Shown here: positions 170 to 39,617 of the stretch, in pieces | Position numbering within the stretch: position 1 is the stretch's first letter | How the letters are laid out: the number at the start of each line of letters is the position of its first letter | DNA from: Marsupella aquatica | Lineage: Eukaryota > Plantae > Marchantiophyta | DNA length: 64,000 bases | Assembly: GCA_973895155.1 (NCBI GenBank) | Contig: OZ316895.1 | Span: 2,653,659 to 2,717,658 of the forward strand | Direction of reading: 5' to 3' | Position numbers and translations under genes: made by a program | Notes under the pieces: generated by a model | The model's database searches: none | What the model saw: only the letters and a program-made list of their open reading frames with translations | Told to the model about the DNA's origin: nothing

Positions 170-478
170 TCCTCAATAATGAGAAAATGTCATTAGCATA
201 AACACTTTGGCTTTCCTCTCTGTTTTTTTTAAGGCTTCCCTCTGTCCTGGTGTTACCCAACATCATCCTTAAATAAATCTGTTGTAGATTTCTACTAGAT
301 CAGAGAGTTAATGGCTTGTCTGAAAGGATAAAATTTATCACAAAAGAAGGCATCCGTGCCAATTGTGTGTGTTCCCTGAACAGAAGGCCAAGCTTAATTA
401 GTAAGCTTGTGGCTCCTTAGATTTAAGCATAATGCACTGGGGTTTAGATTTTTGTTTCAATGACCAAGTTTGGCACTA

Positions 479-3770: not shown

Positions 3771-5021
3771 TCACCCTAGATAGCGAAGAAGTACACCGTC
3801 GTTACCAATGATGAAACCTTTCTTGGGGTCAATGAATTTTACCGTATACAAATTTGCGCCAATGTTGTCTGCTGCTTTGTCCCGGACCCAACTTTTGCCT
3901 CCATCTAAACTCCTGAGCAGTGTTCCACTCCCTCCTACAGCCCATGCTTCCTTTGGGGTTCTGTATCCAATATCAAGAATGCCAAAACCTCTGCTAGTAA
4001 TCTTAGCTTCTTCAAAATCTTCGGTGATCCCAGTTCCTCTGCTGAAGAAAAGACCACCTCCGCGAACAAGGAGCCACAAGCCTCCGTCAGCCCTCCATCC
4101 CATGCTCTGAATTCTCCTAGCACTAGTCCTATTGTGCGGCTGCCAGTAAGGCTGGCCAGGTTCCCATGTCAGGAAGAAATTCCCACGACTGGAAACGGCG
4201 ACATATCCTCCATCAGTGGACCGATTCACCGTGTTGAATGTGCCATTATAGTAACTAGCCCCACTGATATCACTCGACAATGTCCGATTCAAGGTTGCCG
4301 AGACAGTTTCTGCAACAGCAGCCTTCCAATTGTATCCATTGTTCGATGTCACATAGATGGCTCCTTCGTCTGTCACCATTTCCGCACTCTGTTCCCCGGT
4401 GGCTTTGATAATCACTGGATTTCCGGGCAGGCGAGCACTGAGTGGCACTCTCTCCCAACTCTCTCCAGCATTCGTTGTATGAAGAAGAATTGCAGGCTTC
4501 CCAACAATCCAACCCTCTTTGCCCTGGAAACTGATCGAGTTGAGCCGGAAATTGAAATCATCCTCCCCAGTGGGAATGGTCCGTGGGATCCAAGATTTCC
4601 CTCCGTCCTTCGTCTCCAGAAGAGTCTGTCTGGTTCCCAACAGGAACCCATGCTCAGGCTCATCTGGAACAAACGCTAGGTCGACCAGGACGACTCCGGC
4701 ATCCACTGGCAAGGGGATTCGCTCCCAATCCTCAAGCTCCTCCTCCGCTATAGCAGACCCGGCGTCCAACACAGTCGATGATCCCACTAGCGCCAGAGAC
4801 AACAATCCTCCGGACACCCCACCTAGCAATTCCCTCCGCCCGAAATTGCCCTTCTCTTCATTTCCATTTCCATTTCCATTGGCAGAGGCTCTGGCCATCA
4901 GCTGGCAACCATGGCGAGAAGCAACCACATTGGCAGCTCGTGGCAGTGCACAGGCACCCAATTTCCGCGCAGCAACGGATCCGAGAGCAGCACCGACGAT
5001 CGTGGTCGAAACCGCGGCCAT
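3771..5021 (-). CDS. HCF136: Photosystem II stability/assembly factor HCF136 (Ycf48), chloroplast precursor, single exon
   Basis: Continuous ORF from ATG 5021. Ala/Ser/Arg-rich transit peptide, twin-arginine RRELL lumenal signal, BNR/Asp-box repeats (TKDGGKSW, TTNAGESW, SLDGGKSW) and Ycf48 motifs VSSRGNFFLTWEPGQPYWQPHNR and IGNDGVLLRY. Confidence 0.96.
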   Translation of the reverse strand: MAAVSTTIVGAALGSVAARKLGACALPRAANVVASRHGCQLMARASANGNGNGNEEKGNFGRRELLGGVSGGLLSLALVGSSTVLDAGSAIAEEELEDWERIPLPVDAGVVLVDLAFVPDEPEHGFLLGTRQTLLETKDGGKSWIPRTIPTGEDDFNFRLNSISFQGKEGWIVGKPAILLHTTNAGESWERVPLSARLPGNPVIIKATGEQSAEMVTDEGAIYVTSNNGYNWKAAVAETVSATLNRTLSSDISGASYYNGTFNTVNRSTDGGYVAVSSRGNFFLTWEPGQPYWQPHNRTSARRIQSMGWRADGGLWLLVRGGGLFFSRGTGITEDFEEAKITSRGFGILDIGYRTPKEAWAVGGSGTLLRSLDGGKSWVRDKAADNIGANLYTVKFIDPKKGFIIGNDGVLLRYLG

Positions 5022-15084: not shown

Positions 15085-17939
15085 TCAATGATTGACACTC
15101 TTTTCATAGGCTGTCCATCCAGCCAACCGATATTCCTTAGCAGCAGACGCCGGGTCCTTTGCTTTGATGATGCCACGGCCAACAATAATAACATCGCTTC
15201 CTCGTTCACCAATGACCTGAAGAGATAGTTCAGGTGAGGAAACATTCATTAATGTGACATTCATACCTTGTAGAGCCAGAAAATCCCACAGATAACCTAC
15301 TCTACAATAGAGACCAAACAGCAACCTAATAGAGAAAGGAAGCAGTAAAGACTGATCCCGGGGAGGCTCTGCAGCAGCTACGGCTCCTGAAATATTCCAG
15401 CGATCAACACTCAACTCACGTAAAGGGGATGTGAGTCATTAGACGTTTATCAAAGAACAGTCTTCTAGATAGCCTTCTTACAACAGTCCTAGTCAAAAGA
15501 ACCTCCCAAATAAGTAAACTACAATCATTCCTCGCCTATCAATCTGGCATGGAAGGGACGTATGAGTACGACATACCGATCCTGGAGTGTTATACTGCTG
15601 TCCTAGTGAATCTCCTCCTCCACCGATCTGAACACCAGGAGTCATGTGGATCAAAGCTGCGCTTCCAGGGCCCTCGGGCCAAGATGCTGGATTGACGCAG
15701 ATGAACCCAATAACAAAATCTGGGTGGTCAGCTGCAATCTTCGCTGCAGCAGCAGTATATTCGCCTTTTGCTAAAGTTCCAGAGGAGCTCATCTCAGCCA
15801 GGAGGAGTAGACCCCTTCCTTTCGGTAAACCCTGAAAACCACTCGATTATTCAGGTGAAGCGGGATACACAGTTGGGAACTCCTGTGCTGCTCATTTTCC
15901 GCAAGCCCCTAAAAGTAACTTGTATATGGTTTCGGTATGGAAAGATGATTTTACGAAAATATGAAAGTTCAGAATAAGGACTTTGTAGGACAGTGGTTTG
16001 CAATACGAAGGAGCACAAAAATGTTACCTTCAATTTCAAACCATCAACTATCCCTGGCCCGGGAATTACATGGGCATTGATAATGTCAGCCCATTCTAGG
16101 ATTTTGTAGATTCCTCTGCATAAAAACGTAGATCAGTATTTATAAAGTAAGCCCAAAATGATTCTTACAAACATAATTACAGTAAAAAATCAAACAAAGA
16201 CCCGCTCTTTACATGTAGCAACATAGTTTGCCACACTACTTTGCATCACGCTAGATCCCGGTGCTCTGACTGATTATCATTGATTCACTCTCCCTCGTCT
16301 CCCTCAAGACAAAATATCATTTTCGCATTTTGAGCTTCATGCATTAAGTCTTTTAAGGACTTAATACAGTGCTGAATATTGCTGCACTCCAACACTATTA
16401 GATGAAGACTGGGTACTCTCGAATGCAGCAGGAATTTGGAACCATCAAGCTTAAAATTATAAAAACTAGTGTGTGCACATTCAATGCATTCTATGCTTTC
16501 TGTCTGTTTGTTCCTCACCATGAAAATCGACAAAGGTCTTGGATTTTGAAGACAAAAGAGTAAGGTGCATTTATCTCACCCTTCATACTGCATCGTAACT
16601 GTGTTTCCAATGTCAGCAAACTTCCGATCTTCAAATATGAGAAAGTCATGCTTATCTGCAATCTGGATCAGCAAAACACCTGTTCAGATGACGTAAAATT
16701 GAAGCAACAACCACAACTGTTTGCTAGTGCGCGAGAGCGGTACGCCGTAGTATAACGTTGAGTAACGAGTTGAGGTGTAATTCAGTCCCACAGTTTGAAA
16801 CCTACTTTGAAGCACAGGAGATCGACTCAATTGGATAATTTTGACATTTTCGAAACGCAAAAACAACAGCTAGACAACAGCGTACCTCGCGAAGCTTGGC
16901 GCCAAAGTCGGATGTGAAGTCTGGCAAAATATCTACATGTGTTTTAAGGACGCAAATCTCTGGTCCAACCTGCACAAAGACACATCATGTCATGTCCGCG
17001 TTACTTGTGTCTTTGGTCAGGTCTTAAGTTTTGACTGATTTCTTGAATGTAATTACCAGAGAAATCTATATTTTGTAAACACAAGAATTGGCATGGGCAG
17101 CGGAGAAGTAGACGAGCAAAAGAGTGCATAGTGGGGTGGAGATAAATTACAGCATCAGCAATCTTCAGAAGTTCTGCAGCAGTAGAAACGTCAGCGGCTA
17201 CAGACAAATTGCTCTTCTTCCTCTCGATCAGTTCCCATAGCTTCTTCCCTGTAGGATTTTGAGAAAGCTCAGCCCTCTTTCCATAAGGCAGCCTCCTCGA
17301 TTTGACGGGTACCACAGGTGCTGGGGTTCCGTTGACAGTTGTCTGATTGTCAGCAATAAATTGCTTCACGGAAGCTGCAACCTCCTCTGTCACTTTCCCA
17401 TATTTCACCAGAGCATCTACAATCTGAGTGACGGTTAGGGCAGAGTGCAGCTTCAGTCCATGCTTCTCCAAAGTCGAAGATCCACCCTGCTGTCTGTCAA
17501 TTAATACCACCACATCCGTCACCTTCAGCTTAACAGCATTAAGCGGATCCACGGTCTCCAGCACTGATGCACCACTGGTGACCAAATCCTCAATGACAAG
17601 GCATGTTTGGCCCTCTTTGAATGCTCCCTCTATCGCCTTCTTGGTGCCGTAGTCCTTCACCTCTTTCCGTCTCATAACCATAGGGATGTTGTGAGCCAGC
17701 GAAATGCAGGTTGCAATCGGAAGCGCCGTGTAAGGAACACCACAAATCACGTCGTACTCAGCTGAGGAGACTGCTGCCCACATAGCCTTCGCCACTTTCT
17801 CTAGAAGAGCTGGGTACGACACTATCACTCGGAGGTCTATATATATGGGAGAAGTGATCCCACTCTTGAGCTTGAAGCTGCCGAATTTCACAGCCTCAAC
17901 TTCGTTCAACGCCAGGATGAGCTCCAGAAGTTCGTCCAT
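15085..17939 (-). CDS. UMPS: Bifunctional UMP synthase (orotate phosphoribosyltransferase + OMP decarboxylase). Exons ~17939-17151, 16969-16886, 16662-16580, 16115-16029, 15831-15577, 15216-15085
   Basis: OPRT motifs [40 protein letters not shown] motifs [35 protein letters not shown]. Canonical GT-AG introns. Confidence 0.96.
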
Positions 17940-20059: not shown

Positions 20060-20689
20060 TGTGCAACAGTTTTTTCTTAAGAACATCTTATGCGACACCA
20101 CATCTTTTTTCCTTAACGGTATCTTGGGTGACACAATATTGTTTTTCTTAAATAACAACAGCTTGGGCGACACAACGTCTGCTTTTCTTAATGACATCTT
20201 AGATGACACGACAACTTTTTTCTTAATAACATCTTGGGCGTCATGACATTTTTTTTCTTAACAACATCTTGGGGGACACAACATCTTTTTCTTCATGACA
20301 TCTATTGTGCAACACATGGGTGTTTTTTTTCACGACATCTTTTGTTCTCAATAACTTGGCCGACACTACATCTTTTGTTATCACCGGCATCTTGGCCGAC
20401 ACAACATCTTCCTTCTCAACAACCTCTTGGCCGACTCGACATCTTCCTTCTCAATGACCTCTTGACCGACACGACATCTTTTATTATCACCTGCATCTTG
20501 GCCAACACGACATCTTTTGTTCTCAACAACATCTTGGGCGACATGACATCATTCTTTCTTCTGAACGACCTCTTGGCCGACACAACATCTTTCTTCTCAA
20601 CAACCTCTTGGCCGACACGACCTCTTTTGTTCTCAACGACATCTTGGCCGTCACGACATCTTTTGTGCAACGCACAGGTATTTAGCTAG
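20060..20689 (+). mobile_element. 3' part of a non-autonomous Helitron with an ACATCTT minisatellite
   Basis: Degenerate ~37-40-bp units, then hairpin TGTGC-AAC-GCACA (20664-20676) and CTAG|T (20686-20690), the canonical Helitron 3' terminus. 5' end not located. Confidence 0.65.
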
Positions 20690-21968
20690 TGTGACACATA
20701 AATTAAGCAATTTACACATAATGATAGCAATTTACACATAATGATGAGAAAATTTAGGTAATTAATGTTCTAATTAACTGTTGACTTACATTTCAAGTAC
20801 ATTAGGAGACTCTCCATACTTGAAAGTGACCTGAAAATATGCATTGAATGAAACAAAAGTTTGTATTGAATGAAACAAAAATTTACATCTAGTATTGTAT
20901 TTGAAATTTTTGAGACCAGCAAAGTATTGGAAGCGCTTATTGTAACAAAAGCAACATTCTTTGAAAAATATCATTTCTTGGAGCTCTGCAGTGGGAAATT
21001 TAATTGAAACACTCTTTGTGAAAGAGCAACGCTCTCTGAAAAATAAAATTTCTCAACAATGCCTTCTTAGATTAAAATCTGAGATAGTTTTGTTGCAGCA
21101 AAATAAGTCAAACCCCTCCTTAAAACAAGAGCGACACTCTATGAAAATTACAATTCTGTCTCAAGAGCAATGCTCTATGAAAATCAAGATTTACACCCAG
21201 TTTTCCTAGTGCAAAAATTGTTATATTGGTTCATGGTGATTGTGTTGCTTGTTCCTCCTTTTTGTGGGATTTTTGTGATCTGTTATAAACATAAAAATAT
21301 TCTTGAGGAAAAAATTGAATTAATTTTGCTTTTGCTCATTGAACAAACTACTTGAGGGGCTAGAATAAATTGTAAAGAGCTTAGTCTATATAATTTTATT
21401 ACCAGAAAGGCTAGATAAGGCATACAAATACTAAACATTCTTTACATATTTTATGTTTTTTTATTGAACTCTAAAAAAATGGTTAAAGTGACTAGCTTGA
21501 GGGAAATGCCACGTTTAACCTGACGGGCAAGTTGAGGGCTTGCCAAGCACATACGACCGTCAAATGACGGCCAAAAAATATGCAATTTGACGCATATTCC
21601 GTCTGATTCCCTGGGACCCTGTCCAAACCCTCCCTCGGACCCTGCCCGGACCCTTTTAACATTCAGCCTGAACCCTTCTACCCGGACCAGAACCCTGCTC
21701 CAAGAGACCGGGATGACAGGATGACGGCCTCCAATGTCCAATTTGACAGGCAAGGTCAAACTGGGGAAAAGGATATCAAGAGAATAGAACGAGGCTTGCA
21801 ATCAATGCTCATCTGGTTGGTACATGGTATCTTTGGACAAAAATGGACAGAGGTGGTGCTTTGACAAGATACTTTTGGACAAGTGAACAAAAGTGATGAT
21901 CTGACATGATATTTTTGGACACAAGTGTAACAAATAGTATCCGAGCATATATGTGTGTTTAAATCAAA

Positions 21969-22296
21969 CAGCTTTTTACTAAGTTGACCCCCAAACTAGA
22001 CGTTATTACAAATGTAACCCCCTAACTAATTTAATTACAATACTACCCCCCAAACCGTCACCGGTATTCGCACCTTCGAAAGCACGTCATGGCTACCTTA
22101 ACCTACAGTTGCTCCCCTATGCCCGGCCCTTACCCGCCCTTGTAAGGCCTGCATACACGCCCAACAACTTCCCCCCCCCCCAAGGGATCTCCGCTTCCCG
22201 CAGCACCCGAGTCGGCCCCGATAGCACAGGCTCAATGTTTCCTTCAAGAAAACGTCTAACACCTCAACAAGCACCTGTGCGCCTTTCCTTGAGAGA
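21969..22296 (+). repeat. Left TIR of MULE
   Basis: Reverse complement of 35822-36222. The outer ~90 bp are almost identical; the inner part aligns with indels up to CCTTTCCTTGAGAGA. Confidence 0.92.
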
Positions 22297-22491
22297 AATT
22301 TAAATGCAAATTGATCCTATCACCTGAAATCTTTGCCTTCCATAGGCACTCACAGTATCCTTGATCAAGCTCTGACTTCCAAATTTCCGCAGCAGATTAG
22401 GGTCACGATTGCAAAAGCTGTGCAATCTCATTTTTGCTGGATTTCAGGTCCTTTTTCAGTTCCATTGTGTGTACTAGTACTTGCCTCTACG

Positions 22492-22589
22492 ATGGTTGAA
22501 ACTTGCGATTTGAGGGATGAAGTTGTAAGGTACATTGAAGCTTCATTTGAGCTGCAGAGATCCACCGTTGCAAGGTTTTCAGTTGCGCT
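22492..22589 (+). pseudogene. Probable 5' fragment of the MULE transposase gene, split off by the CACTA insertion
   Basis: ATG 22492 reads MVETCD..RFSVA(L). After removing the CACTA and one GCT the frame continues LRFVAHDAGHCALEQRDLEKVEL from 32263. Confidence 0.45.
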
Positions 22590-23234
22590 CACTACAACAC
22601 TACCGACCCCTTTTGCGAACCCCGTCCCATCGCAACTAACAAAGGACCAAATTATGAAATTCCGGCGTTTGCGAAATGCTACGCATCGCAACCCTTTCGC
22701 ATTCTTTGAAACCCACAGCTTCGCAATTGGACTTTCGCAACCCCTTCGCAACACCTTCGCACACTGCGAAACTTATTTTATCGCACATAAATCACATTTA
22801 TGCGATCTCGACAGACTCTTTATCGGTTTGCGACGCGCTCTGAACTATAACTTACTTGCGAAGCTATTTTCTTGACAATTCCGTTGCCATTCATATGGTA
22901 TCGCATAACTGCGTCAGTCAGGGTGTCACACAATTGCGGAACCAAAAGTATCGCAATGTTCCAATACTCAATGTATGGCAAGTTTGCGATAGTATGGCGT
23001 TCGCATGTGTGTCACAAGGATAGTTTGAGGGCTGGGTTTTGTATATTTGGGTTCATAATTGGGTTGGGGTCTTATTGCTCCACATGAAGATACCAAAGCA
23101 AAACTTTATATATGCCAAAAATCCCTGAATGTACAAAAATTAGGGTTTTCTAAAACCCTATGGGGTATCAAATACCAAGACACTGTCCTTTGACTAATCC
23201 ATATGCCATATGGAGTGAACTACATCTGCATCCT

Positions 23235-25297
23235 CTAGAATGGAGCCCGCCTACTCCTCTTTGCTGGCCTCTTCCCCTTGTCCTTCTTGCTTTGGGCGGG
23301 ACGAGCTGGACGGGAGGGGGGTGGTGGTGGTGGCGGCGGTGGTGGTGGTGCCTGCTGCTCCTCCCCATCTGGCTCATCCTCATCATCGTCATCATCCTCA
23401 TCATCGTCATCATCCTCATCATCATCCTCCTGGTCTCCTGGTGTGCTAGGTGTGGCAGCACTCCCTGCCCCTCTGGACCCACTCGTGGTGGCCCCGGTAG
23501 TGTCCCCATCATCAGCGCCGCTATCCTCCTCACTGCTATCCTCACTCCCCTCCTGCTCCTCCTTATCCTGCTTCCATGCCACAAGGTTAATTCGGGTTTA
23601 GGGTTAATAGGAAAAATGTATAAACCTTATAAATGGAATGGGTGCGGGTTTAGAAAGGGTACTACAAATCACTCACACTAGCCAACTCTGCATCAACCAA
23701 CTCAAAGAGATGTCTGGCCCCATGCTCTGCCCCTATCTCCATCTCCTTTGTTGTTATCTTGCGGCGGTACCTCTTATACTACCACAAAAAAATGAAACAC
23801 CAAAACATAAGGGGCCCGGGTTAGTAACTAAGGGTACTTAAGCAAAAAAGGAATCCTAAAAAGGGTAAAAAGGGTACCCTAACCAGAAAAAAAACCCCAT
23901 TACCCTAACAAACATTTGTCACTCGACACTAAACATTTTTCAAAATGAAACAAGCTTTGCGAAACTCCCACCTTCGCAAATTCAAATATATTTAAGTTTG
24001 CGAAATAGACTGCGAATCGGATTGCTTCGCAATGGCTTCGCAAACCTTACGGGAAAAAGGTTATAATAGAGTTTGCGAAACAATTGCGAGGCAACCCGCT
24101 TCGCAATTGTTTCACAAACTGTGCTTTTAAAAAAATCCGAGAAATGGCTAAGGCACGCAATGTGTCAGGGTGACCTAAAACGAAAGGGGAGGCCATAAGG
24201 GGTAAAGCAGAGGTCTGCGAGGGGCATTGCAGGCAAGCAAACAACAATTGAAGGCAAAGGAAAAGAAGCAGGGGAGGAGGGGAGAGGACTCACGAAGGTT
24301 GCTTTCAGGCCGGGAAGTCCACCTTGCCCCATCTTGTGTGTGGTCTTGGGGCGTTTGCTGACTCGGTCTGCTGCAAGGATGAACTTCTGGGGTGGTGTCC
24401 CCACTTCATCCACGATGTGCTGCAGCTGTGAGACCTTCTCAGCCAATGCCTTGAGGTCTTGGTCTGACTTCCCGGCCTGAAGTGCCTTGGCCTCCTTCTC
24501 CTTCCAGAATTGGAGGTCCTTGGCTGCTTTCAGCTGCACCTCGACCTTATAGAACGCGTTCCACACATCCTCTATGAATTGCACTGGCCTCCTCACGTTC
24601 CTGTACTCCTGCAAGCTTGCTAGGTAGGCCCTCACCTTCCTCCTATCATGGTATCGTGCTTGAGACATTGAATTTGAAATTCTATCTGCAAGCCACTGGT
24701 CATCAATCTCTGCTCCATTTCTGAATGAATCTTTGACCTGAGTCATTACTTTCCTCTGCTCTGCTCTGCTTAGTTTCCCCCACTCAACACCTCGTGCAAA
24801 GCTAGTCCTCACAGCAAGCCTGATAGTGCTCTTTGCCCCAGTGTAGGCCAACTCAGTAGGAATGCCCTCAACCAAGGCAATCAATGGCAGCTTCTTCCTC
24901 TCTTCCTCCTTTTTCCGCTGCGCCTCACGTTGTGCTCGAATCTCATCTCGTTCCTCCCTTCTCCTCTTCTTTTCGAGGGCTGCAGGAGAGAGTACTCCTC
25001 CTTCTTTCGTTTCTTCTCTCTGGCCTTCTCCTCAGCTGCAGCCTTTGCCTCTTTCTCCCTCTGAGCCTGCCCTGCTGCAACCCCGGTTTGCAAAGCTTGC
25101 CCTAGAATTGCACTCAAAGAAGCAATCCCAACTGGTGTACTCAAATCCAAATGGCTCAGCTGTGTGGCATTGAGATGCTCGGCCATCAAATTTGTCCATT
25201 GATTACTCTCCTCATTCCTATTCCCTCCATTGCCATTGCCACTCCCACTCCCACTTGCCCCTGCCCCATCCCCTCCACGCCCTCCACTAGAATCCAT
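23235..25297 (-). CDS. CACTA second gene, TnpA/Ptta-like. Exons 25297-24294, 23778-23677, 23567-23235; one apparent 2-nt frameshift at ~24990
   Basis: Phase-0 GT-AG junctions join the exons. Gly-rich N-terminus, charged coiled coil, THKMGQGG motif reminiscent of Transposase_24, long Asp/Glu tract, poly-Pro, basic C-terminus KKDKGKRPAKRSRR. Removing one CT from the (CT)n at 24985-24994 restores the frame. Family assignment is tentative. Confidence 0.65.
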
Positions 25298-26655
25298 AGC
25301 TATCCAACACCAAGCGCGCAAGCTCTCCTCCTGCCCTCCCTCACTTCAAAAAACGTCGAATGGGCCTCATAACCCAGCGGGAAGGTCCGAATGCCCAGAC
25401 AAAACACATTTGCGATGCAGTCCGCATCGCAATTTGCGAATCAGCCTGCTTCGCAACTAGTATCTCAACTTTCCAAAACCAACCACACGCTTCGCAAAGC
25501 CTTCGCAAAGCTGCAGAGACGCAAAAAAACGCTCTTGGGCTCTGTTTTTCCGAAGCTGTTGCGAAATATTTTGCTTCGCAAATAATGTGACCAAATTCTG
25601 AAGCAGGTTGCGAAGCAGGTCGGTTCTCAATATCGTGGCAATTCCTGGCAAATTTTTTTTTCACATTCTTTCCCTCCTCCTTTTGTTTAGGCCATGTAAG
25701 TTATACTATGCCCTTTTGTGTAATTAAGAAATTCCGCCGTTTCAAATCCCGGCGTTTGTTAGGGTTGGGTCTTGGATGAAGCTGGTTTTTTTAGGGGTTA
25801 AAAGCGAGATTACCAGTCAAACCTTCCGTTTTTTAAGCTATACATGGTGTGGGTGTAGGCTAATTTTGATAAGAGTTGGGTTTTGGTTTAAAATTAATAA
25901 GTGAGGAAAGGGCTTAGGATTAAAGTTGGGTTTGGGTTTAGGGTTTAAGTCTTTAATTTTGGGTTTAAGCAGGGTTTGCATTTATGGTTGTAGGCTTTTA
26001 GGGTTCAAGCAAGGGTTTAGGGTTTAAAACAAAAGAGAGGAAGGGGATTGGGAGTGAGGGTCTAGGTTTTTGTAATAGGTCAGAGGTTTGGGGGTGAGGG
26101 TTTGGAAAAGGCAAAGCAAGGTTAGATGAGATTAATGTTTTAGTTGTTTTACCATGGGTTTTAATGGGTTTTAATGGGTTTTATGGATCTTTTGGGTTTT
26201 AATGGTTTTTCCATGGGTTTTATGCTAACAAAGGAGGAGGAGCTATGACAACTTGCAGGGTGCGGCACTTTTGCATGAATTGATACTAGCTAATGCGTAT
26301 GCATCGTGAGAGCCCGGGCATCTAGAGGTACGGACTAAAATAGATGGGTCTAGTTAGGCTTATTCATGTAATTAAAAATTTTGGTTCCCACTATCTATAA
26401 AGAGGACATGTATGTAAGGTGTTCGCTTTGTGTACTTGCAGCTTTTCGCATACTTCCAGATTCGGTTCATTATTTTAGAGCCACAAGACCTATTGGCACC
26501 GCTGAGCCTGGGTCTCAGAAAGGTATTTTTTAGTGTTCCTTTTGTGTTTGGTTTCATGTCATCATTACTTGAGAACTTACATTTGTCCAGCTTGATATTG
26601 TGATGTTATTTGGTAATAACCCCTAACTTGCAAATTATACATCTTTGTAGGGGCA

Positions 26656-27806
26656 ATGTCTTCATCTTCTGAGATCTCCACCACAGATTCTTCCTCCTCC
26701 GATGAAGATATACCACCTCCTCCTCAACCTCACACGACTGCACCTCCTCCTCGTGGTCCACCCCGTCAGCTTTGCCAATGTGCCAAATGTGTGGGTCAGG
26801 TTTCCCAAAAGTCCTATATATGCACCCAGCATATTGAGAGATATGGACGTTACGGACGTCATACAACAGGGGCTTCCTCATCCCATGTGGTAAGTGTTTA
26901 CGCCTTAGTTTCTACCCTATTTCCACATCGCAATGGTGAAGGTTTTTAATTTCACACCTCTTGTTGTTTGTTTTGGTTTGGGTGGAATAGGTATCTAGTA
27001 GGCCTAGACCTGCGGCATCAGCACCTTATGTCCCATCACAAGGTGTTCTAGATGCTATAGGCAATGCATTCTCACAAGCCTTGGGTCTAGCAACAGCCCC
27101 TTCCAGTCCTAGGGCAGTTGGGGGTGAGCCTGTTGTCCCAAGAGGGAGAAAGCATTCCAAGAGACGGCCCCGAGGGGATATTGATTTGTACAAGGCAGTG
27201 GTTACCGGTAGGTGGGGTGATTGTGAGTTTACTGGCAGATGTGTTCCTATCATCAAGGACTGGGATCCCCAGACTCTTGGTTTGCCACAAGAGCTTTCCT
27301 ATGGTGAGGAGGTAGAGGTTTGGGGAAGACGTTGGGTTATCAAACCTTCCACACTTGGGGATAGACATGGCTATGGAGTTTTTGCTTGTGAAGACATCAT
27401 TGTGGATACCGAGAGTGGTAGTGGTGGACGCAGTCGAGAAGGACCTACGTTGTTTCCTTATGGTGGACCCATCTACAAGAGAAGACATTGGAACATGATC
27501 CTTGCACAACATCCTGAGTGGAAGACTTATGCCTTGGAGTTAGATACTTTTGATGGAAACACTAGGAGGTATAGTGAGCAGCGGGTGATAGATGGGGACC
27601 CCATACAAACTGGGAATATAGCTGGTTTCATAAACAGTACTGTGGGGACTCGCCCCAAGCGTAGGCAAAATTGTGAGTGGGTTTTCATTGAGGGTCCTCC
27701 ACCAGCCCCTTATGGCCAGACATATCATCATGACCATTGTCTGGTTGTAGCTACTAGGACCATTCACTCAGGTGATGAGTTGTTTACTCACTATGTGTGG
27801 GATTAG
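26656..27806 (+). CDS. CACTA-encoded SET-domain protein, ~349 aa. Exons 26656-26889 and 26991-27806
   Basis: Exon 1 has CQCAKC-x11-HIERYG (transposase-associated Zn-like). Donor GTAAGT at 26890 and acceptor AG at 26989-26990 are in frame. SET motifs in order: IKPSTLGDRHGYGVFACEDI, PYGG, IDGD..GNIAGFINS, VVATRTIHSGDELFTHY. No stops. Confidence 0.85.
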
Positions 27807-27949
27807 AAAATGACCATACACATGGCGTTTGGCCACATTTTGTATTTACACCAGTACCGATATTATTTCATGTTTGCACACCCCCATATATTCTTCTACA
27901 TGTTGTAACTATTTTCTTTGTAACTTTCAATTGTTTGCATTGTTTTTAG

Positions 27950-30900
27950 AATGTGCGACCCTCTCAAAATATGTTACCGCGAAGATTGAGAGCAACATAT
28001 CGGGAAATGGGTATGCCGGAAGAAGGACAAGGCTCTGAGTCACATTCCTCATCAAGTGACAGTGGAAGCAACAACCCTGATCGCAATGTACCCAGAACAT
28101 ATGAACAGGTTATTGATGACCAAGATAGAGCCATGGATGATTTTATGGTTGATTGGTTTGGTGTTGACGTCCCTGGTGATGATGCTGAGGTGTCTGCTGA
28201 TCAAGGAGGTCATGTGCCCCCCAATGATCCACGACCAAGACATACCCCCGAGGGACAGCGCCAATGGGAGGAAGCAGAGGAACGTGCCCGAACTCCTATC
28301 TATGAGGGTGCTCGTTTGAGTCGTCTTTCTGCTATCTTGGGGTTGATGAATCTACAGGCCAAACACAAGGCAAGCAATGCCTTGTTATCTGATATGTTTG
28401 CACTTTGCCATGACCTTATGTTACCTTCTGGCAATGTGTTGCCAGGAACTTGGAAGGAGGCCAAGCGTGTTCTCTCATCAATTGGCATGGAATATCACAT
28501 CATTCATGCATGTGTGAATGATTGCATGTTATTTCATGGGGCCGATGAGAAGAAGACAGAGTGTACTGAATGTCATGAGCCACGGTATGACCCCAACATG
28601 ATTACAAAGAAGGTGCCAAGAAAAGCTGTTCGTTGGTTTCCCATCATTCCTCGGTTGTTGCACATGTACAGGTGTTCTGATTTGGCAGAGTTGATGGTAT
28701 GGCATAAGACTCATCGATCAGAGCCTGGTGTTATGCGGTTGCCAATTGACTCTCCTGCAGTCAAACATATTGAGGAAACATGGCCAGACTTTGCACATGA
28801 TCCTCGTCATGTGAGGTTGGGATTGGCATCTGATGGGGTTAGTCCTCATGCCCTTGGAGGCAAGGGAAGACCTACATCAGTTTGGCCTGTGGTTGTGATG
28901 AATTACAACCTTCCACCATGGCTATCCATGAAGAAGGGGTTCCTCTTGCTGTCTTTGATTATTCCAGGTCCAAAAAAGGTGAAGAACTTTGACACTTATT
29001 TGGCACTATTGATTGGAGAACTCCAAAAACTGTGGGGTGGAGTGTGGGCATATGATGGCAGGAAAAATACAGGAGGCATTCCACGTGTATTTAAATTGAG
29101 AGGGGTAGTTTGTTGGACAATGCATGACTATCCTGGTAAGATGACTTTTTGACCATATGCCACCCTTCTTTGATATGCTCTTTAATATACTTGTTTGTCA
29201 TGTGACAACCCTAACATTTAGTCTGGTTTTATTTTTGGTGTAACCAGGGTTTGGCTTTGTCTCTGGATTGCAAACTCAGGGGTACAAAGCTTGCTCCACC
29301 TGTGGTCCACAATTGCAAGATATGGCGATTTGGTCCCCATGGCTTAGGAAGATTGTTTACATTGGGCATACAAAGTTTCTTCCGATGGGGCATGAGATGA
29401 GGTCTGACCCACTTTTATTTTCCTGCTTTGACATGCCCCTTGGTGATATGCGGGAAATTCCGGAACCAACAACTTTTGGGCATTGGAAGTCACTAGCTGA
29501 TAGGGTGGCAGACCCTGATGATCCCCTCACCTTTGATGGTACTGGGTTGACGAGGTGGAGTATACTAGCCAGTTTGCCCTATTGGTCAGAGTTGAAGATC
29601 CGCCATCTTTTAGACCCCATGCACATAGAGGGAAATGTGGGGAAGGCGTTGATAGCTCATTTTTATGGGGAGAAGGACACTAACTTCAGGGAGGCATGTG
29701 AAGAGTTGGAAATGCATCCAGATGTATGGGTACAAGTTGATCCTGCCACAGGTTTGGAACATCATCCTTCTGCTCCTTGGGTGCTTAGTGTTGGCCAAAG
29801 ACGTGAATTCCGAAATCGTATAGGGGAGATGCGGTTTCCTACAGGCTATGGTGCCAATTTGAGGAAAGCTTTTGGGATGGAGGACAATCACAAATGGCCA
29901 CGGTATCTCAAGACACATGACTATCACCACTTATTGCAGCATATATTGCCAGTGGCAATTATAGGGTTGGGGACCAAAGAAGTGCAAGATGCCATTTGGT
30001 CATTGGGTCGTTTGTTGAGATGGATATGCTCAAAGGAGATATATGTGGAAGAGATTCCTGGAATGGAGGTATTGGCTGCTGAGGTGGTTTGCAAGTTGGA
30101 GAAGGCCCTCCCTCCTTCCTTCTTTGATTGTCAAGTTCATTTACTTGTGCATCTTGTGAGGGAGGTTGCCATTGCTGGTCCAGTTCATTGTCGATGGATG
30201 TACTGGCTTGAGCGTTACATGTCAGTCTTGAAGGCTTATGTACGTAACCGTGCACGAGTGGAGGGAAGCATAGCTACAGGATACTTGGCTGCAGAGAGCA
30301 TGTTTTATTGTAGTAACATCTTGGCCACCATTGATCGGACTTTACCACGTACTTGGATGGAGGAGAGGCAAGAGGAGGAGGACCGTTTAACAGGAGCAAC
30401 AAAAACACGCATGCTTACATCAACAGAGTGGACACAGTTGAATACATTCATGTTGAGTAATAGCAATGTCATGGATGAATGGAGGGAGTTTTATGACAAT
30501 GCCAAAAGAATGAGTCAAAGGGCAAGGATTTTTTCTAAGTTGCATGAGTTTATGAAGGAAAAGTTGGTTGAGTTGGATGGCATTTTGGCACAAGGAGGAG
30601 ATGTCTCACAGTTTCCTACTATGACAAATGACATTCGGACCATTGTTCATGGCCCTTTGAGAGTGGTAACATCCAAGACGGCCATGTGGACCCAAGGGAG
30701 ACACTTCAGGTTTCACTAGTTCCTAACCTTGTTTTCCATATTCATGTACTACTACTTAAGATATAGTAATCATTTTACTTAAGATAAGTGTGTTTTTCTC
30801 TTTTGGTATGAAAGGTTCCTCATAACATGATTAGTGTTTTTTGTGTAGTAGTAACAATATATGGGTCTTGTTAATTTCAGGATTTCTTCCCTTGATGAGA

Positions 30901-31359
30901 AGAGGGCTCGTACTTTTGATTGTGGAGTTCAAGGGCAGTTTTGTCAGGACTCCCGGAGTAGCCGACATGACAGGAACATTGTTCGTGATGTTGTGCCACA
31001 CTATGGGAAGATAGAGGAGATTTTGGTGGTCTCATATGACAACCAATCTAAGTTTGAGGAGTATGTCTTCAAGTGCAAGTGGTTCAAAGTGAACCTTGTT
31101 GGTAATAATCGCACTGTACTCCAAGATGAGAGTGGGTTTACACGGTTGAGGACAAGTGCCACTAGTTTTCAAGCATCTCATTGGCAAACGTCAGAGCCAT
31201 TTACTTTCCCATCTCACTTGGAGCAATGTTTCATACCCCTTAGACCCAGAGTGGTCAATTGTCATCACATATGTGCCACGGTCTCGTTCCATTGTTTCAG
31301 ACAAGCCAGACACTATTTTTGTGTCAGATGTAGAGGACATTGAAGGTGACCAAGTGTGA
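27950..31359 (+). CDS. CACTA transposase TnpD (Transposase_21, DUF4218, DUF4216-like). Exons 27950-29135, 29248-30709, 30881-31359, probably preceded by 26656-26889; frameshift near 31230
   Basis: Motifs IHACVNDCMLF, RLGLASDG, WPVVVMNYNLPPW, MHDYPG, LDPMHIEGNV, LKTHDYH, HLLVHL, GPVHCRWMYWLERY, FKCKWF. Intron phases match at 29135/29248 and 30709/30881. The C-terminus DPEWSIV lies in a shifted frame. Confidence 0.93.
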
Positions 31360-32262
31360 GAGACACTTATGGATATTTAAACAAAAAAATCTATATCATG
31401 GATTGTTCATGTTGTTTCTTAATTAATATTTCATACACCATTAGTGTGGTAGGTATTTTCATTTTGGACTCCTACTTTCAAAAGAGGTCATGCATATAAG
31501 TGGCATGGCTTATCCCTCCCTTATCCCTCCTCCCTCTTTGAACCCAAACTCTCCTTCCTCTTCCAAAAACTCCATAGCTTTTTCTCCTCCCTCCCTCTTC
31601 GCTAAAGTCTCTCCTATTTTTAGTAAACCCTCTTTGGACTCCCTTCTTCCTCCGTCCCTCATCCACCTTCCAACTCCCTTCCTCCCTCTTTCACCTTTCA
31701 CCTCCCTCCCTCCTCCTCCCCCATTCAAACTCTAACCTAGATGCACACACAAGTCTAACATAAACGTTTGCGAATTGTTTGCGAAACTAAACAAATCCCA
31801 ACCAAATCGCAATTCTGCCATTTAAACCGTTTCTCAATTATTCCATACTATACGCTTCACTATTTTGCGATATCCAGACCATCCCACCTTTACCATCCAC
31901 ATCGTTTCGCACATTTGCCATACAAACCCATCGCAAATTGTTTGAAGCTAACCTTTTTGCAAACATCCTCCAATACTAATTGTTTCGCATCATTAATGTT
32001 ACCGTGGTTTTGGACTTTCGAAGCGGTCGCGGAGCCTTCGTAATGTGTTTTGTAATCTCTGTAGTTTTGCAAAATATTGTGATACAATAAAGTTCGCAAA
32101 ATGTTTGCGATGCAAATCGCATGGAAGACCAAGTTGCGATACCACAAGTATCGCAAATTGCGATGCGTATTGAGTCATCAACGATTTGAAGCATCTGGAA
32201 TCGCAAACGTGTGTCCGGACGCAAATGAGCTTCGCAAAAGGGCAAAATATGTTGCAGTGGCT

Positions 32263-34589
32263 GCGATTTGTAGCACATGATGCTGGTCACTGTGCACTTG
32301 AGCAGAGGGATTTGGAAAAGGTTGAATTGTAAGGTCATTCCTTTTACAGGGGAAGGAAGGGCTGCATGGGATTTGCTACATGAAGTTCACAGAATTAAGG
32401 AACCAACTCTAAAATTCTCGACATTGGTAAGAGGACTGCGCTTGTCATAACCATTTCGTTCCATGATCTATGCTTATATTTTTCTGAACTGCAATTATCC
32501 ATATAAAGCTTGCAATTCTTATGTCATTGCCCTCTACAGTGCACGATGTTAGGAGAGTTGCAGCATCTAGTCCTAAAAGCAACAAAATTGAACATAGGGA
32601 CAACATTTGAGAGCTGGCCAGACCTGAAAAAATTAGTTGTGGATGAGCGTGTGGGCACAGAGAGACTTCTGGTGACTGATAAGAAAGATGATTATAAGTG
32701 GAAATTGAGATGCAAAGTGAGTACATGCCCTTAGAGGCTGAGAGCTACAAGTCCAGAACAAAGATAATTACCATTACAAAAACCTGTCTGCAACACACTT
32801 GTGAACGTGCTGATCATTACAAACGGCAAATGCACAACAACTCTGATAGGCTTGTAGACAAAATCATGGATATCATTGCCAAGAATAGGCAAACACGACC
32901 ATCTTTCCTGAGAGATTTAGCTCAAGCTTGGGTCCATCCTGACATCAAATACCATACGGCATATGCTGCAAAACATCGGTGCTTGAAGCGACTTGATGGA
33001 GATGAAACAAAATCCTTCCATCTCATACCAGCCCATTGTCATCACATCCTTGAGCGGGATCCCACTGGAGTTGCAAAGTATAGGGCACCTGATGGTCATC
33101 TATACCTGTTATTTGTCTGCCCTTCAACATCCAAGGAAGCATTCCGTCACTATAGGCCCATGGTTGCATTAGATGGAACTCATACTCGATGCATGTACCC
33201 TGGCATTTTGCTGTTGGCCACTTGCTTGGATGCTAATAACACTGTCATCTTACTAGCATATATCTTACTAGCATATGCTTGGGTGCCGTCTGAGAATGAG
33301 GCAAACTGGCTGGTCTTCCTGAATTTATTGAGAGATGCAATTCCAGATTTGTGTCGCCCTGGTGTTGTATTTATTTCTGATCGAGAGAAAGGTCTAACTG
33401 ATGGAGTGCCTGAAGTTTTTCCCCATGGACATCCGACATATTGCACATGGCATCTTGGGGAGAATGTGCAGAAGCACTATGGTAAGGAGATGAGAAAGCT
33501 TTTTGATGCATGATTGCCTTATGCTGTTACACCAACCAAGTATGAGCTGCAACTATAGGCAATTGAGGAGAAGAATAAGCCGGCTGCAGAATACATCTGT
33601 AGGACAGCAGACCCCAAGTACTACTCCAAGGCCTACTTTCCATCTAGAAGGTTTGTGATGCAGTGGAACTCTCTCCTTCAATTATACTTTACAATGTTCT
33701 TGCCTTTCCATGAAGTATTTTGTTCTTCTAACTAATTTTGATGGGTGTAATGGATTTCACATGTTGCCGTACGTGGGGACATGAAACCTCACAACAAGCA
33801 GAGAGTAGTAATAGGGCATTGAAACCTCGACGCCAGGAATTAACATTGAACATGTCCCAGAAAATTTGGGATTATATGATGGTGAAGTATTTTGAGAAGC
33901 AGGAGTTGGCTGAAACCATAACAAGCCCCCAGGTAACATCATGGCCACTTTGAATGAGGTGGAAGAAAAGGCTGCTCATTTTACTGCCCATCCATCCCAT
34001 GCAAATGAGGTCAGAATCACTGATGATAATAACCGACAATTTCTAGTGCAGCTTGAGCCAGAGTGGTCATGCAGTTGTGGTGAATTCTAGGACACTTTGC
34101 TGCCTTGTTTACATGCATGGCGAGCAATTAGTTGGCTGAAAAAATGTCACTATGATTATGTTTCTCCCTACTACAGCACTGAGACATTTAAGAAGACCTA
34201 TGAGTGTCATATGTTGGCTTTGATGAGAGATGGGCTTGTTCCAGACCCTTGGTGTGGTCCTCCATTGAAGGATGCTCCTCCATTGAAGGACCACAGAGCG
34301 ATTAAGGATGCGGTTTGATGAGGAGGAGGTGTGCAGATTACCAAGGAAGTGTGGGGCCTGTGGAGCATGAGGCCATGATCGTCGGAATTTCCCGGAACGT
34401 CAAGCAGCTAAGCAAGTTGTAGAAGGAGGAAGCACTGATGTGGCAATTGGTTCACCTGGAGATGGAGAGGACTGTGATGTGAATGTGGAAGAGGAAGCCA
34501 CTCACACTATCAATGGTTGGGGTTCACAGGAGAGCATGAACATTGGAAGCTTCTCACAATTACTAGCTACAATGGAAACCCAATCGTGA
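32263..34589 (+). pseudogene. MuDRA-type transposase pseudogene (MuDR N-domain, MULE DDE domain, SWIM, Zn knuckle)
   Basis: IGTTFESW..LRCKVSTCP*RLRA; PMVALDGTH..ATCLDANN..FISDREKGL..YCTWHL; SWIM CSCGEF*DTLLPCLHA; knuckle CGACGA*GHDRRN. Stops at 32732, 33511, 34088 and 34368, plus frameshifts. Confidence 0.92.
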
Positions 34590-34994
34590 TGCAATATGTA
34601 GGTTTAGTCCAATGTAGCTTTAGTGGAGTGCAGGTTCGGAGACAAATTTATGGAACTATTTCTATTTCTTACCTTTATCAACAGCCTTGTGTTGTGTTCA
34701 ATGTTCATGAACTGGCCAGAACAGTTCACAAAAATCATTGTTTTTGAGACACCTCAATGAATGCAAGTATCCAGGTTATGTTTTTGATATACAGCTTGAG
34801 TTGGAATGAATGAAAACGTGAGTTGGAATGAAAGAGAAAACATTGTATTGCTTACAAAATTTGCCTTTGAGGGCCATACATCAAAACTGGAAGCAAATGC
34901 TTTGCTGTGGACTCAAAAGACAGAGTACTACCAGGAGCTGATAAATGCAGCAAACTAAGAACTATACTGGACAGAACTATAGCAAGTTTGTTCT

Positions 34995-35579
34995 CTATAG
35001 ATAGCCAGCTGCATGTCCTCGCCTAATGCGCATGAGTCCATCCTATAAGTATGCACATGCCTCCTGCTTGGTCTAAAAACTTTTAAATTTACACCCACTA
35101 AACCCATACACCTGTTGATTGCATGCCTCCCATGTCTCATAGATGCCAGGGGTAAAGGCACGCACAACCGCATAATATCTACGTTTCTGTCCAGGAAGGA
35201 CACCCATTAGGTGGTCAGAAGGTGGTTCTTGCTCAATTGCCATATTCGTAGGTGCTGGTGTTGGTTTTGTGCCATGCTCTGGTTCAAATGTCATGTTCAT
35301 AGATGCTTGACGAGTACCCTGTTCCTCCAAATAATCAAAAACTAATTTTCCTTCATTCTGCATAGCCCTAGTTGTTTGCATCTGCATAAGACAAACAGTA
35401 GCAGCTGGGCTCGGGGCTGGGCTTGTTTGCTCCCGTGTAGTCTTGAGCCAAATCTGCACCTTGTCCTGACCCATCTCCATGGCATTGGACATAAATTGAA
35501 AAATAGATCCAATGACACCCAACATTGCCCAAATACATACTGCAAGTGCCTCAAGAATGGAGCTTGAGGTGTTTGACAT
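34995..35579 (-). pseudogene. MULE second gene with a C-terminal RNase H1 N-terminal hybrid-binding (Cauli_VI-type) domain
   Basis: YYAVVRAFTPGIYETWEACNQQVYGFSGCKFKSF*TKQEACAYL matches the RNase H1 HBD pattern YAV.G..PG.Y..W..C..QV.G.....K.F....EA..F/Y. A premature TAG at 35073-35075 lies inside the domain. Hydrophobic N-terminal segment. Confidence 0.8.
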
Positions 35580-35821
35580 TGTTTGTCTCTTGGGTGGCCC
35601 TTGGTCGGCAGTCACCAGTAGAGGGCACAGTCACTGGTAGAGCTCGATTGATCAGCGCTCGGAAACAGATGGCAAATGACAAGCTCAATGGCTGCAATCG
35701 TAGCCGACACGAGAAGCTACAACTGATTGTAGAGCTGAGAGCTGGCCAGAAATTGCTCAGCGTTGAGCTTGAGCACTTATAGCTACGATGGCCCCTAAAT
35801 CCGTAGCTGCAATGTGAGTTA

Positions 35822-36222
35822 TCTCTCAAGGAAAGGTGCGCAGCTTCAATGTGAGTTTTCCATCTACAAAGGTGCACAGGTGCTTGTTGAGGTGCTCGAC
35901 ATTTTCCTGAAGGAAACGTTGAGCCTGTGCTGCCGGGGCCGACTCGGGCGCTGCGGGAAGCGGAGACCCCTTTTTTTGGGGGAGGGAAGTTGTCGGGCGT
36001 GTATGCATGCCTTACAAGGGTGGGGCAGGGCCGGGCATAGGGGAGCGACCGTCGGTTAAGGTAGCCAACCCGGGTTTGAGCCGGCCAATGACGTGCTTCT
36101 GGAGGCGCGAATACAGGTTATGGCAACCGGCGACGGTTTGGGGGGTAGTATTGTAATTAAATTAGTTAGGGGGTTACATTTGTAATAACCTCTAGTTTGG
36201 GGGTCAACTTAGTAAAAAGCTG
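35822..36222 (-). repeat. Right TIR of MULE
   Basis: Ends ...GGGGTCAACTTAGTAAAAAGCTG, the inverted counterpart of 21969-22296. Confidence 0.92.
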
Positions 36223-36828
36223 TTAAATCAAATCCATCCAAGTTTGGGTTGTCCATGGGGGCTTCATAGACAAGGTATCAATCTATCCTGACTTTAAGTT
36301 CCATGGTTGATGACAAGTTCTCTAATCTAACCAAGGTTACCACGTATCAAAATTGTGGCGTATTTATAAATACAGTTTCTTTTTTCTCTTTACAAAGAGA
36401 CCCATGGTTGATGACAAGTTCTCTAAATAATCTAACAAGACATGGCTGAAAACTTTAGGGATTAGTTATGATATTAGTACATGTCAAGGTGACAGAGCTG
36501 GCGAATGCCATGGGAGTTCCCTGAAACTGGAGAGATTAGTTCCCATAGTAGTAGATGTCAAGGTGACAAAGGGGGCGAATGCCATGGGAGCCTCTTTTCT
36601 CTTTTTTTCTGTTGACGAGCCGAGCCTAAATGCCCATTATTTGAATGAGAGTAGATGATGACAAAAATAAGCATTCATATCATCATTTTGACATCCCATC
36701 CTGCTCTCCATTCACATACATTTGGTGGGACCTTAGAGTTACAGAGGCTTCACCTCGAGAAACAACCCTAGATTCTATTCGCAAAATTAGTAGTAAGATT
36801 GGGTTTTTCGCACTTTAATATATATACA

Positions 36829-38912: not shown

Positions 38913-39617
38913 ATGGCGTCTGCGTATGGGCATATCGCCCGTCCGTCTCCAGCTGGTGCGGGAACGCTGGCTGGCATTCTCCCGCTGGAGAAAATCCTGA
39001 AAGACAACACGGCGGTGCAAGTGTTCCACATCTCGCCTCTGGGAGAACAAGGGGCGATTTTCGCACCGCGGTATCCTAAGTTGGTGAGCCGAATGCACAC
39101 GCTCTTCAATGCGGAGATCGAAGATGGCAACACTTACCCGCAGGAGGAGCTTCTTGACGAGCCCCAATTCCGTGCCTACTTCCTGGCATACGACGCCTTT
39201 GTCGTCGTGCAGGTGCCAACGACAAGGAGTAGTAGCGAGGGAGATCTTCTTCTTGACGATGGGAACGCTGACTGGGAAGCGAACCTGCTTGGCTTCTTCT
39301 ACGTAAAACCCAATTTCCCTGGCCGCTGTTCTCATATTTGCAACGGTGGTTTCTTCACAGCACCAGTAGCTCGCAACCGTGGAGTGGGGCGTTGTATGGC
39401 GGAGGCTTTCCTTAAAGTGGCTCCCGCTCTGGGATACAAGTCGTCTATGTTCAACCTGGTGTTTGTGAACAACACTGCATCTGTGAAATTGTGGCAGTCG
39501 TTAGGATTTCGTGAGATCGGGCGGATTCCAAAGGCTGGTCGGCTCCGATCTTCTCCTGAGCTTGTAGATGCTATCATGTTCTACTATGATTTCACCCAAA
39601 GGCACAGGGCATCATGA
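38913..39617 (+). CDS. GNAT N-acetyltransferase, Mpr1 (L-azetidine-2-carboxylate acetyltransferase)/Spt10-like, single coding exon
   Basis: Motifs EIEDGNTYPQ, GFFYVKPNFPGRCSHICNGGF, acetyl-CoA loop RNRGVG, and APALGYKSSMFNLVFVNNTASVKLWQSLGFREIGRIPKAG, as recalled for the fungal Mpr1/Spt10 family. Confidence 0.88.
   Translation: MASAYGHIARPSPAGAGTLAGILPLEKILKDNTAVQVFHISPLGEQGAIFAPRYPKLVSRMHTLFNAEIEDGNTYPQEELLDEPQFRAYFLAYDAFVVVQVPTTRSSSEGDLLLDDGNADWEANLLGFFYVKPNFPGRCSHICNGGFFTAPVARNRGVGRCMAEAFLKVAPALGYKSSMFNLVFVNNTASVKLWQSLGFREIGRIPKAGRLRSSPELVDAIMFYYDFTQRHRAS

Follow-up and report, generated by a model that had tools for sequence, protein, structure and literature searches.

The liverwort Marsupella aquatica carries a CACTA/EnSpm transposon that encodes, next to its transposase TnpD, a protein with a SET domain. 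Judging from its sequence and that of its relatives, the SET exon is an integrated, long-conserved component of the element. Escape from silencing is known in plant transposons for only a few DNA-binding factors, namely VANC and TnpA. If the mechanism proposed below holds true, the element would be the first case in land plants of a transposon shown to act as its own chromatin writer.

Structure of the element and its genomic setting

We refer to the whole stretch of 64,000 nucleotides that was analysed as the window. Its features are the following:

3771-5021, minus strand: host gene, single-ORF YCF48/HCF136
17001-17939, minus strand: host gene, UMP-synthase-like phosphoribosyltransferase
21968-36223: MULE hosting the CACTA insertion (long terminal inverted repeats, 8-9-bp duplication, decayed MULE transposase from 32698)
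22590-32259: CACTA/EnSpm element with GCT duplication (ends and empty site in run X3)
22590-23010: 5' terminus and subterminal TCGCAA repeats (12 in the 22-kb bin vs 0-2 per kb outside the element)
23231-25345, minus strand: divergently transcribed gene; frames 24881-25345 and 24165-25031 overlap, probable acidic/Pro-rich last exon at about 23231-23580
26524-26650, plus strand: probable 5'-UTR intron, from donor- and acceptor-like ends in the sequence
26656-26889, plus strand: exon 1, 78 codons, Ser/Pro-rich start and putative CxCxxC-x13-H zinc finger, phase-0 donor at 26890
26991-27806, plus strand: SET terminal exon with basic linker, N-flanking module (about 27186-27320) and SET domain (Pfam, alignment, model); GxG at 27369-27377, Tyr at 27459, Asn-Ser at 27633-27638, Glu at 27777, Tyr at 27792
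27950-29135, plus strand: TnpD exon 2, phase-0 acceptor, first Asp and HDYPG of the Tnp2 core
29248-30709, plus strand: TnpD exon 3, CxxC, HxxxH and Glu; DUF4218
30881-31360, plus strand: TnpD exon 4, weak DUF4216, frameshifted near 31231 in the window copy
31760-32259: 3' subterminal TCGCAA repeats and 3' terminus (sequence)
38913-39617, plus strand: host gene, GNAT acetyltransferase
50263-57354, plus strand: host gene, superfamily-1 (AAA_11/AAA_12) helicase

Termini and duplication, as read from the sequence, delimit an element of 9,670 bp with the 5' end CACTACAACA and a 3' end that is the reverse complement of CACTGCAACA. The ends are CACTA and CACTG, and a target-site duplication of 3 bp, GCT, lies on each side. 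A contig of run X3 joins position 22575 to position 32260 with a single GCT. This empty site confirms both ends and the duplication, and with them the original prediction of an element defined by terminal inverted repeats and target-site duplication. TCGCAA clusters are found at both ends and near 24-25.6 kb, and they are present in related loci, too. The surrounding MULE has terminal inverted repeats at 21967-22296 and 35822-36224 that are about 330-400 bp long and 90-98% complementary; stops interrupt its transposase beyond 33513. Opposite to this decayed transposase, an ORF on the minus strand (35073-35630) encodes an RNase H1 N-terminal domain (Cauli_VI, PF01693, E 8e-13), possibly an accessory or captured gene. 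Direct repeats of about 35 bp, belonging to one family, form two clusters 20 kb apart (window 1-170 and 20087-20690) and are probably subterminal repeats of another transposon. The YCF48 protein is 95-97% identical to that of Calypogeia fissa, 83% to that of Marchantia and 80% to that of Sphagnum, as would suit a host among the leafy liverworts close to Calypogeia.

The frame of the SET exon is open over 271 codons and matches PF00856 with an E value of 4e-6 (27.6 bits, cut-off 22.4, Pfam scan), and all SET motifs that had been predicted are present in it and in order. A GTAAGT donor at 26890 joins exon 1 to the SET exon in frame, resulting in a predicted protein of 349 amino acids. The Calypogeia fissa gene model P0001 (351 amino acids) has the same two-part structure, and many Sphagnum and Calypogeia gene models join exon 1 to the SET exon. 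The claimed splice to a transposon-type zinc exon is hence upheld as a predicted in-frame junction, but the attribute "transposon-type", which we take from a resemblance of motifs, finds no Pfam support; exon 1 has no match above cut-off and no transposase-associated family appears at E values up to 10.

TnpD matches PF02992 (E 1e-37) and PF13960 (E 2e-34) above cut-off and PF13952 weakly (E 0.012), and it carries the C(2)C and H(3-4)H motifs of DDE-type Tnp2 transposases, as these are given in PMC12730594. Exon 2 of TnpD begins 143 bp past the SET stop, at AG|AAT in phase 0, so that the SET exon does lie directly upstream of TnpD as predicted; in the loci compared this spacer measures 136-147 bp. 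GT follows right after the last exon-1 codon in 16/16 loci scored, and AG precedes TnpD exon 2 in 21 of 23. The seven codons ahead of the first TnpD methionine are conserved at the protein level, with synonymous changes, whereas the adjoining intron is not conserved (17/40 identical bases against 48/60). This argues that translation enters TnpD from an upstream exon, for which exon 1 is the candidate. Exon 1 and TnpD exons 2-4 together form 1,114 open codons that include the Tnp2 motifs. Thus, the donor of the zinc exon fits TnpD exon 2 in frame as well, which points to alternative splicing, with the SET exon inferred to act as an alternative last exon within TnpD intron 1. Reading frames and splice signals make it probable that the SET and TnpD isoforms share exon 1.

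A direct junction of exon 1 to TnpD occurs in none of the 14 longer database proteins with exon 1. Most of these continue into the SET exon or read through the intron, and one runs from exon 1 through a partial SET into TnpD. A full SET-TnpD fusion protein was rejected as a product, since the copies conserve the SET stop and lack a donor-like motif close to it; the last such motif common to both copies compared is found inside the SET domain, at 27673. The database models with a fusion (P0056, P0149, P0174, P0176) are probably read-throughs of gene prediction.

The original prediction had described an intact ORF. This holds for the SET frame, but not for the rest of the window copy: the last TnpD exon is 8 bases short at 31231, where contigs of three of the four runs have them, and the gene on the reverse strand is broken up into two frames that overlap. 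The window copy may hence no longer be autonomous, with its SET frame intact. In peat-moss-type copies the counterpart of the window's TnpD exon 3 has, about midway, an extra interruption of about 150 bp (L001:2627-2774, similarly in L014, L030 and L031), a probable intron.

The reverse-strand gene occurs in 9 of the 14 loci that extend 2 kb or more upstream, and its region in the window differs by 16-25 gap letters from the contigs of all four runs. It gave no Pfam match above cut-off. The product is presumably helical with TnpA-like features, and it is probably a TnpA-like DNA-binding protein. A TnpA-like gene in liverworts and mosses would be of note, since such proteins are apparently confined to flowering plants according to 10.64898/2026.08.24.746577.

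The SET fold and its family

An AlphaFold (AF2) model of the SET module, built from an alignment of 79 rows with 25-85% identity to the window, reached a mean pLDDT of 91.4 and a pTM of 0.87, superseding an earlier fold from 35 close sequences (pLDDT 49.8). Foldseek returned 288 PDB matches with this model at E<=1e-3 and, among the matches listed, all are SET proteins. In VIA, COMPASS/Set1, SET8, PRC2 and SET7/9 are tied at Z scores of 12.2-11.2, the top ten matches having 15-27% identity; the best one (Z 12.2) aligns 124 residues with an rmsd of 2.6. SET proteins of giant viruses match at a distance like that of other solved SET structures. In a profile search of the PDB the SET of bacterial LegAS4 came first (E 2e-6), followed by EZH2 (E 0.002), whose match spans 31 profile positions only, in the C-terminal motif. 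A single-sequence search of the PDB with the SET exon gave nothing at E<=10 and a shallow profile only E values of 1.3-1.6, while SET clusters ranked first in the ESM Atlas (0.97, Streptophyta). The modelled fold does not single out a substrate, its top matches being tied across H3K4, H4K20 and H3K27 enzymes.

Catalytic-type residues are widely conserved in the 79-row alignment. The exon has both the GxG motif and a C-terminal ELxxxY with the terminal Tyr. G62 is kept in 73/77 rows and G64 in 76/78, position 92 (the first active-site Tyr) is Y or F throughout (61 Y, 18 F), and Y115 is kept in 73/79, N150 in 66/76, E198 in 65/67 and the terminal Y203 in 60/65. All the motifs listed in the original prediction are there, with the correction that the usual His of the NHS motif is Ser in 72 of 76 homologs. 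Similarly, the absence of pre-SET and post-SET domains stands insofar as the window protein has neither a Cys-rich pre-SET nor a post-SET zinc cluster, but a conserved N-flanking module of about 45 residues is present and modelled with a pLDDT above 90. Pfam detected no N6-adenine methylase domain in the window protein.

A word search yielded 49 SET homologs among 188 candidates, 44-86% identical, and all named ones come from Calypogeia fissa or Sphagnum. When 1.84 billion representatives were searched with a profile, 128 SET-family matches reached E<=1e-3; 20 of these were looked up, and those with a name belong to Riccia sorocarpa (5), Calypogeia fissa (1) and Ginkgo (1, E 4e-4). The Pfam scan set consisted of 51 proteins, 49 of the 128 together with P0001 and P0007, and showed SET or Transposase_21 only, the sole exception being an S-layer protein of marginal E value, probably a false match. 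Neither the window protein nor the 51 homologs had a flanking domain of host SET proteins (pre-SET, AWS, post-SET, SRA, PHD) in Pfam. Pattern searches, which see close relatives only, found no close SET relative in viral contigs (0/10 candidates) or prokaryotic genomes (0/24 candidates). A close host gene, the possibility raised originally as a near-identical source, did not emerge from the profile search, the 51-protein Pfam scan or the PDB profile. The window SET is thus predicted, on the modelled fold and these searches, to form a separate minimal family with no clear host donor. Membership in the host families SUVH, ATX/SET1, E(z), ASH1 and ATXR5/6 was rejected, given the missing flanking domains and the 15-27% identity to solved members. 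Two proteins, P0226 (Ginkgo Gb_21150) and P0163 (Calypogeia CAM6103004.1), are distant long-branch members of the SET family with Cys/His-rich N-termini and possibly represent other TE lineages or domesticated genes. A 90% cluster of "SET domain-containing" Sphagnum models has 360 members. Hundreds of such models are likely transposon exons and would inflate counts of bryophyte histone methyltransferases.

Conservation, copy number and the moss-liverwort relationship

In a metagenome scan we recovered 41 related loci (L001-L041) from 144 candidates, which are not fully independent owing to probable shared insertions (e.g. L009/L039, L035/L036 and L022/L034/L037). Most of them (36/41) share 85% identity or more with a Sphagnum jensenii protein. 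TnpD starts within 400 bp downstream of SET in 24 of the 28 loci with at least 250 bp of downstream sequence, and in each of the four loci without TnpD nearby the SET is truncated. Of the 20 loci with at least 500 bp of upstream sequence, 17 have exon 1, and the other three are 5'-truncated. A CACTAC 5' end was found in five loci with four different flanks. L030 is a full-length peat-moss-type copy of 9,893 bp with an ACA duplication on both sides, matching ends and a degenerate 3' tip. Gene models of Riccia combine SET with Tnp2, their TnpD being about 43-49% identical. Further copies with SET and TnpD, for which the original prediction had called, thus exist. Among the 128 distant SET matches, six gene models have TnpD sequence and five a CxCxxC..H exon (by pattern), although most of the 128 are short predictions without context, so that the linkage to TnpD is established for part of the family.

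We estimated dN/dS by the Nei-Gojobori method on tblastn-projected codons, comparing the window with 40 loci (one had too few codons). Values for SET are 0.13-0.28 at a dS of 0.6-1.3. TnpD exon 2 gave 0.09-0.15 with one outlier of 0.33 (4/19 loci saturated), and TnpD exon 3 gave 0.11-0.17 (7 loci). Together with the position of TnpD within 400 bp in 24/28 loci, this bears out the claim that the SET exon is integrated and not of the Pack type. Close peat-moss-type copies, compared with one another, give a dN/dS of 0.87 for SET and 0.70-0.75 for TnpD, and stops interrupt SET in 14 of 40 loci. The value of 0.87 indicates that most copies decay after insertion.

Runs X1-X4 behave as DNA, and X1 may be the window's own source. 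Contig depth of the element compared to unique host sequence is 361-438 vs 13.8 in X1, about 1370-2740 vs 28-66 in X2, about 1350-2040 vs 60-91 in X3 and 573-650 vs 47-58 in X4. In every run the near-identical element contigs hence exceed unique host contigs in depth by a factor of about 10-40, a rough ratio and not a copy number, which suggests recent multiplication of the element. In X1, contigs on 26323-30874 reveal a second, more divergent family at a depth of about 530-620 that matches the exons and not the introns, and these contigs break at intron positions equal to those of the window. The organism thus appears to have two or more multi-copy SET-CACTA families.

In a quick SET tree of 77 of the 79 rows (two with less than 60% coverage were dropped), the window groups with Calypogeia, Sphagnum and unnamed rows, and this group (12 rows, SH-aLRT 97) stands apart from the Riccia rows. 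Liverwort and peat-moss elements share about 70-77% DNA identity in coding regions, and the Riccia relatives about 40-50% protein identity. Horizontal transfer of the element between bog mosses and liverworts is possible. The tree grouping and a dS of 0.6-1.7, where unsaturated, between the window element and related loci speak for it, but introns of the window and of peat-moss-type copies are barely alignable (z 1.5, 2.0 and 4.2), and paralogy among TE families could yield the same tree.

Function of the SET product and comparison with known systems

We predict, with good confidence, that the element maintains its SET product as an active lysine methyltransferase. This prediction draws on the conservation of catalytic-type residues under purifying selection. 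In the mechanism that we propose, exon 1 would be spliced to the SET exon and the message would end inside TnpD intron 1, giving a Zn-SET isoform, while skipping of the SET exon would give a Zn-TnpD isoform from one transcript. The Zn-SET protein, predicted to depend on SAM, would mark histones on the element's own chromatin. Either the shared zinc finger or the TnpA-like product of the reverse strand, binding the TCGCAA repeats, might bring the enzyme to cognate copies; the targeting role of exon 1 is conjecture. The mark would oppose silencing by H3K9, H3K27 or DNA methylation, so that the element stays expressed and mobile, a direction of action that we adopt by analogy with VANC and TnpA. 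The chances are about even that this whole chain, in which the SET isoform is a chromatin lysine methyltransferase favouring the element, applies. A more general picture, in which the zinc exon of an ancient bryophyte CACTA lineage addresses either the transposase or the SET writer to the element, the mark is anti-silencing and the elements possibly moved between peat mosses and leafy liverworts living in their midst, is tentative and, taken as a whole, somewhat doubtful.

The structural matches include SET7/9 and SETD6, enzymes with non-histone substrates. The methyltransferase could hence be active on TnpD, the TnpA-like protein or a host silencing factor and tune assembly or stability of the transpososome, in line with its likely co-expression with TnpD from one unit and with the absence of a histone-reader domain in all 51 homologs scanned. 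However, histone-lysine enzymes account for most of the top structural matches and for the best profile matches, and the papers on TE-borne SET genes read such genes as histone methyltransferases, if only as untested proposals. We therefore regard a non-histone substrate as rather unlikely.

The enzyme might instead write a repressive histone mark (H3K27 or H3K9), which would be self-limiting or shift the element from DNA methylation to reversible silencing of the Polycomb type. Among eukaryotic proteins EZH2 gives the strongest profile match (E 0.002), the tied top folds include PRC2, and many Marchantia TEs carry H3K27me3 according to 10.1101/2022.10.24.513474. The element is also depleted in methylation-prone sites: in the SET exon the ratio of observed to expected CG is 0.25 vs 0.56-0.96 in four host genes, and that of CHG 0.74 vs 1.18-1.27. 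This indicates that the element lineage has been methylated for much of the time, which is not favourable to the reading of an efficient anti-silencer. The EZH2 match is, however, limited to 31 positions of the C-terminal motif, and the characterised accessory regulators of plant TEs, VANC and TnpA, activate, so that a repressive mark appears unlikely.

That the SET fold is catalytically dead and serves as a decoy or reader, binding histone tails or sequestering host silencing enzymes, is improbable. The Ser in place of the NHS His in 72/76 homologs, the missing post-SET cluster and the Phe at the first active-site Tyr in 18/79 rows would fit such a role, but GxG, Asn and the terminal Tyr are kept over wide divergence. 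The NHS His binds SAM through its backbone, and the SET of LegAS4, crystallised with an H3 peptide, likewise lacks this His in the alignment. A neutral captured fragment of a host gene (Pack-CACTA) or an artefact of gene prediction is very improbable: the decay of most peat-moss-type copies (dN/dS 0.87 among close copies, stops in 14/40 loci) would suit it, but TnpD decays likewise, and it is contradicted by a dN/dS of about 0.2 across lineages, the fixed position in 24/28 loci and the lack of a host-type SET protein among the 51 homologs.

SET-carrying DNA transposons are already known; distinctive here are the land-plant CACTA context, the exon probably shared with the transposase and the SET family of its own. 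The original prediction knew of no SET domain as a CACTA component, which does not hold for the superfamily: red-algal Plavaka elements (EnSpm/CACTA superfamily) carry PAG2, an N6-adenine methylase joined to a SET (10.1101/2025.02.11.637652). There, too, an EnSpm-superfamily transposon stably bears a PF00856 SET with a proposed role in chromatin modulation. In contrast, PAG2 is a separate fused gene in a three-gene cassette of 17-19-kb elements (10.1101/2025.02.11.637652), with termini described in PMC12730594 as TGT or CATCA, while the liverwort element has CACTA ends and a stand-alone SET exon between a zinc exon and a plant-type Tnp2. Identity with PAG2 was rejected, given the missing methylase domain and the CACTA ends. 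SET genes are also reported for HarbingerS and oomycete (Phytophthora) MuDR elements (PMC12730594, citing Kojima and Jurka 2014) and for Phytophthora proto-Helentron-Pi, where the gene is Clr4-like with a reported similarity of 50% (PMC4067079). Compared by description, these belong to other superfamilies and hosts; the liverwort SET is at most 27% identical to solved SETs, its transposase is Tnp2, unlike that of Harbinger, and its SET exon probably shares exon 1 with the transposase. No SET-encoding CACTA element of land plants was found in the literature searched, most subscription papers, Repbase Reports and bioRxiv supplements being outside its scope, and the accessible parts of PMC11982613 and PMC4158355 held nothing relevant.

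TE-borne SET genes have been annotated several times, and in the parts of the literature covered none was assayed. The family described here (about 205 amino acids, confidently modelled, single-exon, dozens of divergent homologs) occurs in a lineage with the models Marchantia and Physcomitrium and makes the question whether transposons write their own histone marks directly testable; if targeted, the protein would be a compact sequence-specific epigenome writer. SET8, LegAS4 and giant-virus SETs resemble it in having a SET core without Cys-rich pre- or post-SET, LegAS4 also in the missing NHS His, but the liverwort protein is set apart by its 15-27% identity, its own N-flanking module and insertions, with no clear nearest family.

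Anti-silencing by transposon proteins is described for the sequence-specific factors VANC of Arabidopsis VANDAL MULEs (PMC5735166) and TnpA (10.64898/2026.08.24.746577, PMC13547354), and fungal TET/JBP transposons are thought to counter silencing (PMC12730594). As far as described there, VANC and TET/JBP remove DNA methylation or oxidise methylcytosine, whereas the liverwort SET would write a lysine methyl mark. A survey of 962 Spm proteins mentions accessory domains without naming them in the part available (10.64898/2026.08.24.746577), and the terms "SET domain" and "methyltransferase" are absent from the main text of this paper and of PMC13547354. Maize En/Spm and Arabidopsis EN/SPM3 produce TnpA and TnpD by alternative splicing (10.64898/2026.08.24.746577, PMC13547354), and the liverwort element would similarly obtain a second product by alternative splicing of its transposase gene. 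However, TnpA is an HTH protein, while the second liverwort isoform has an enzyme fold, and the TnpA-like gene of the liverwort element seems to be separate and on the opposite strand.
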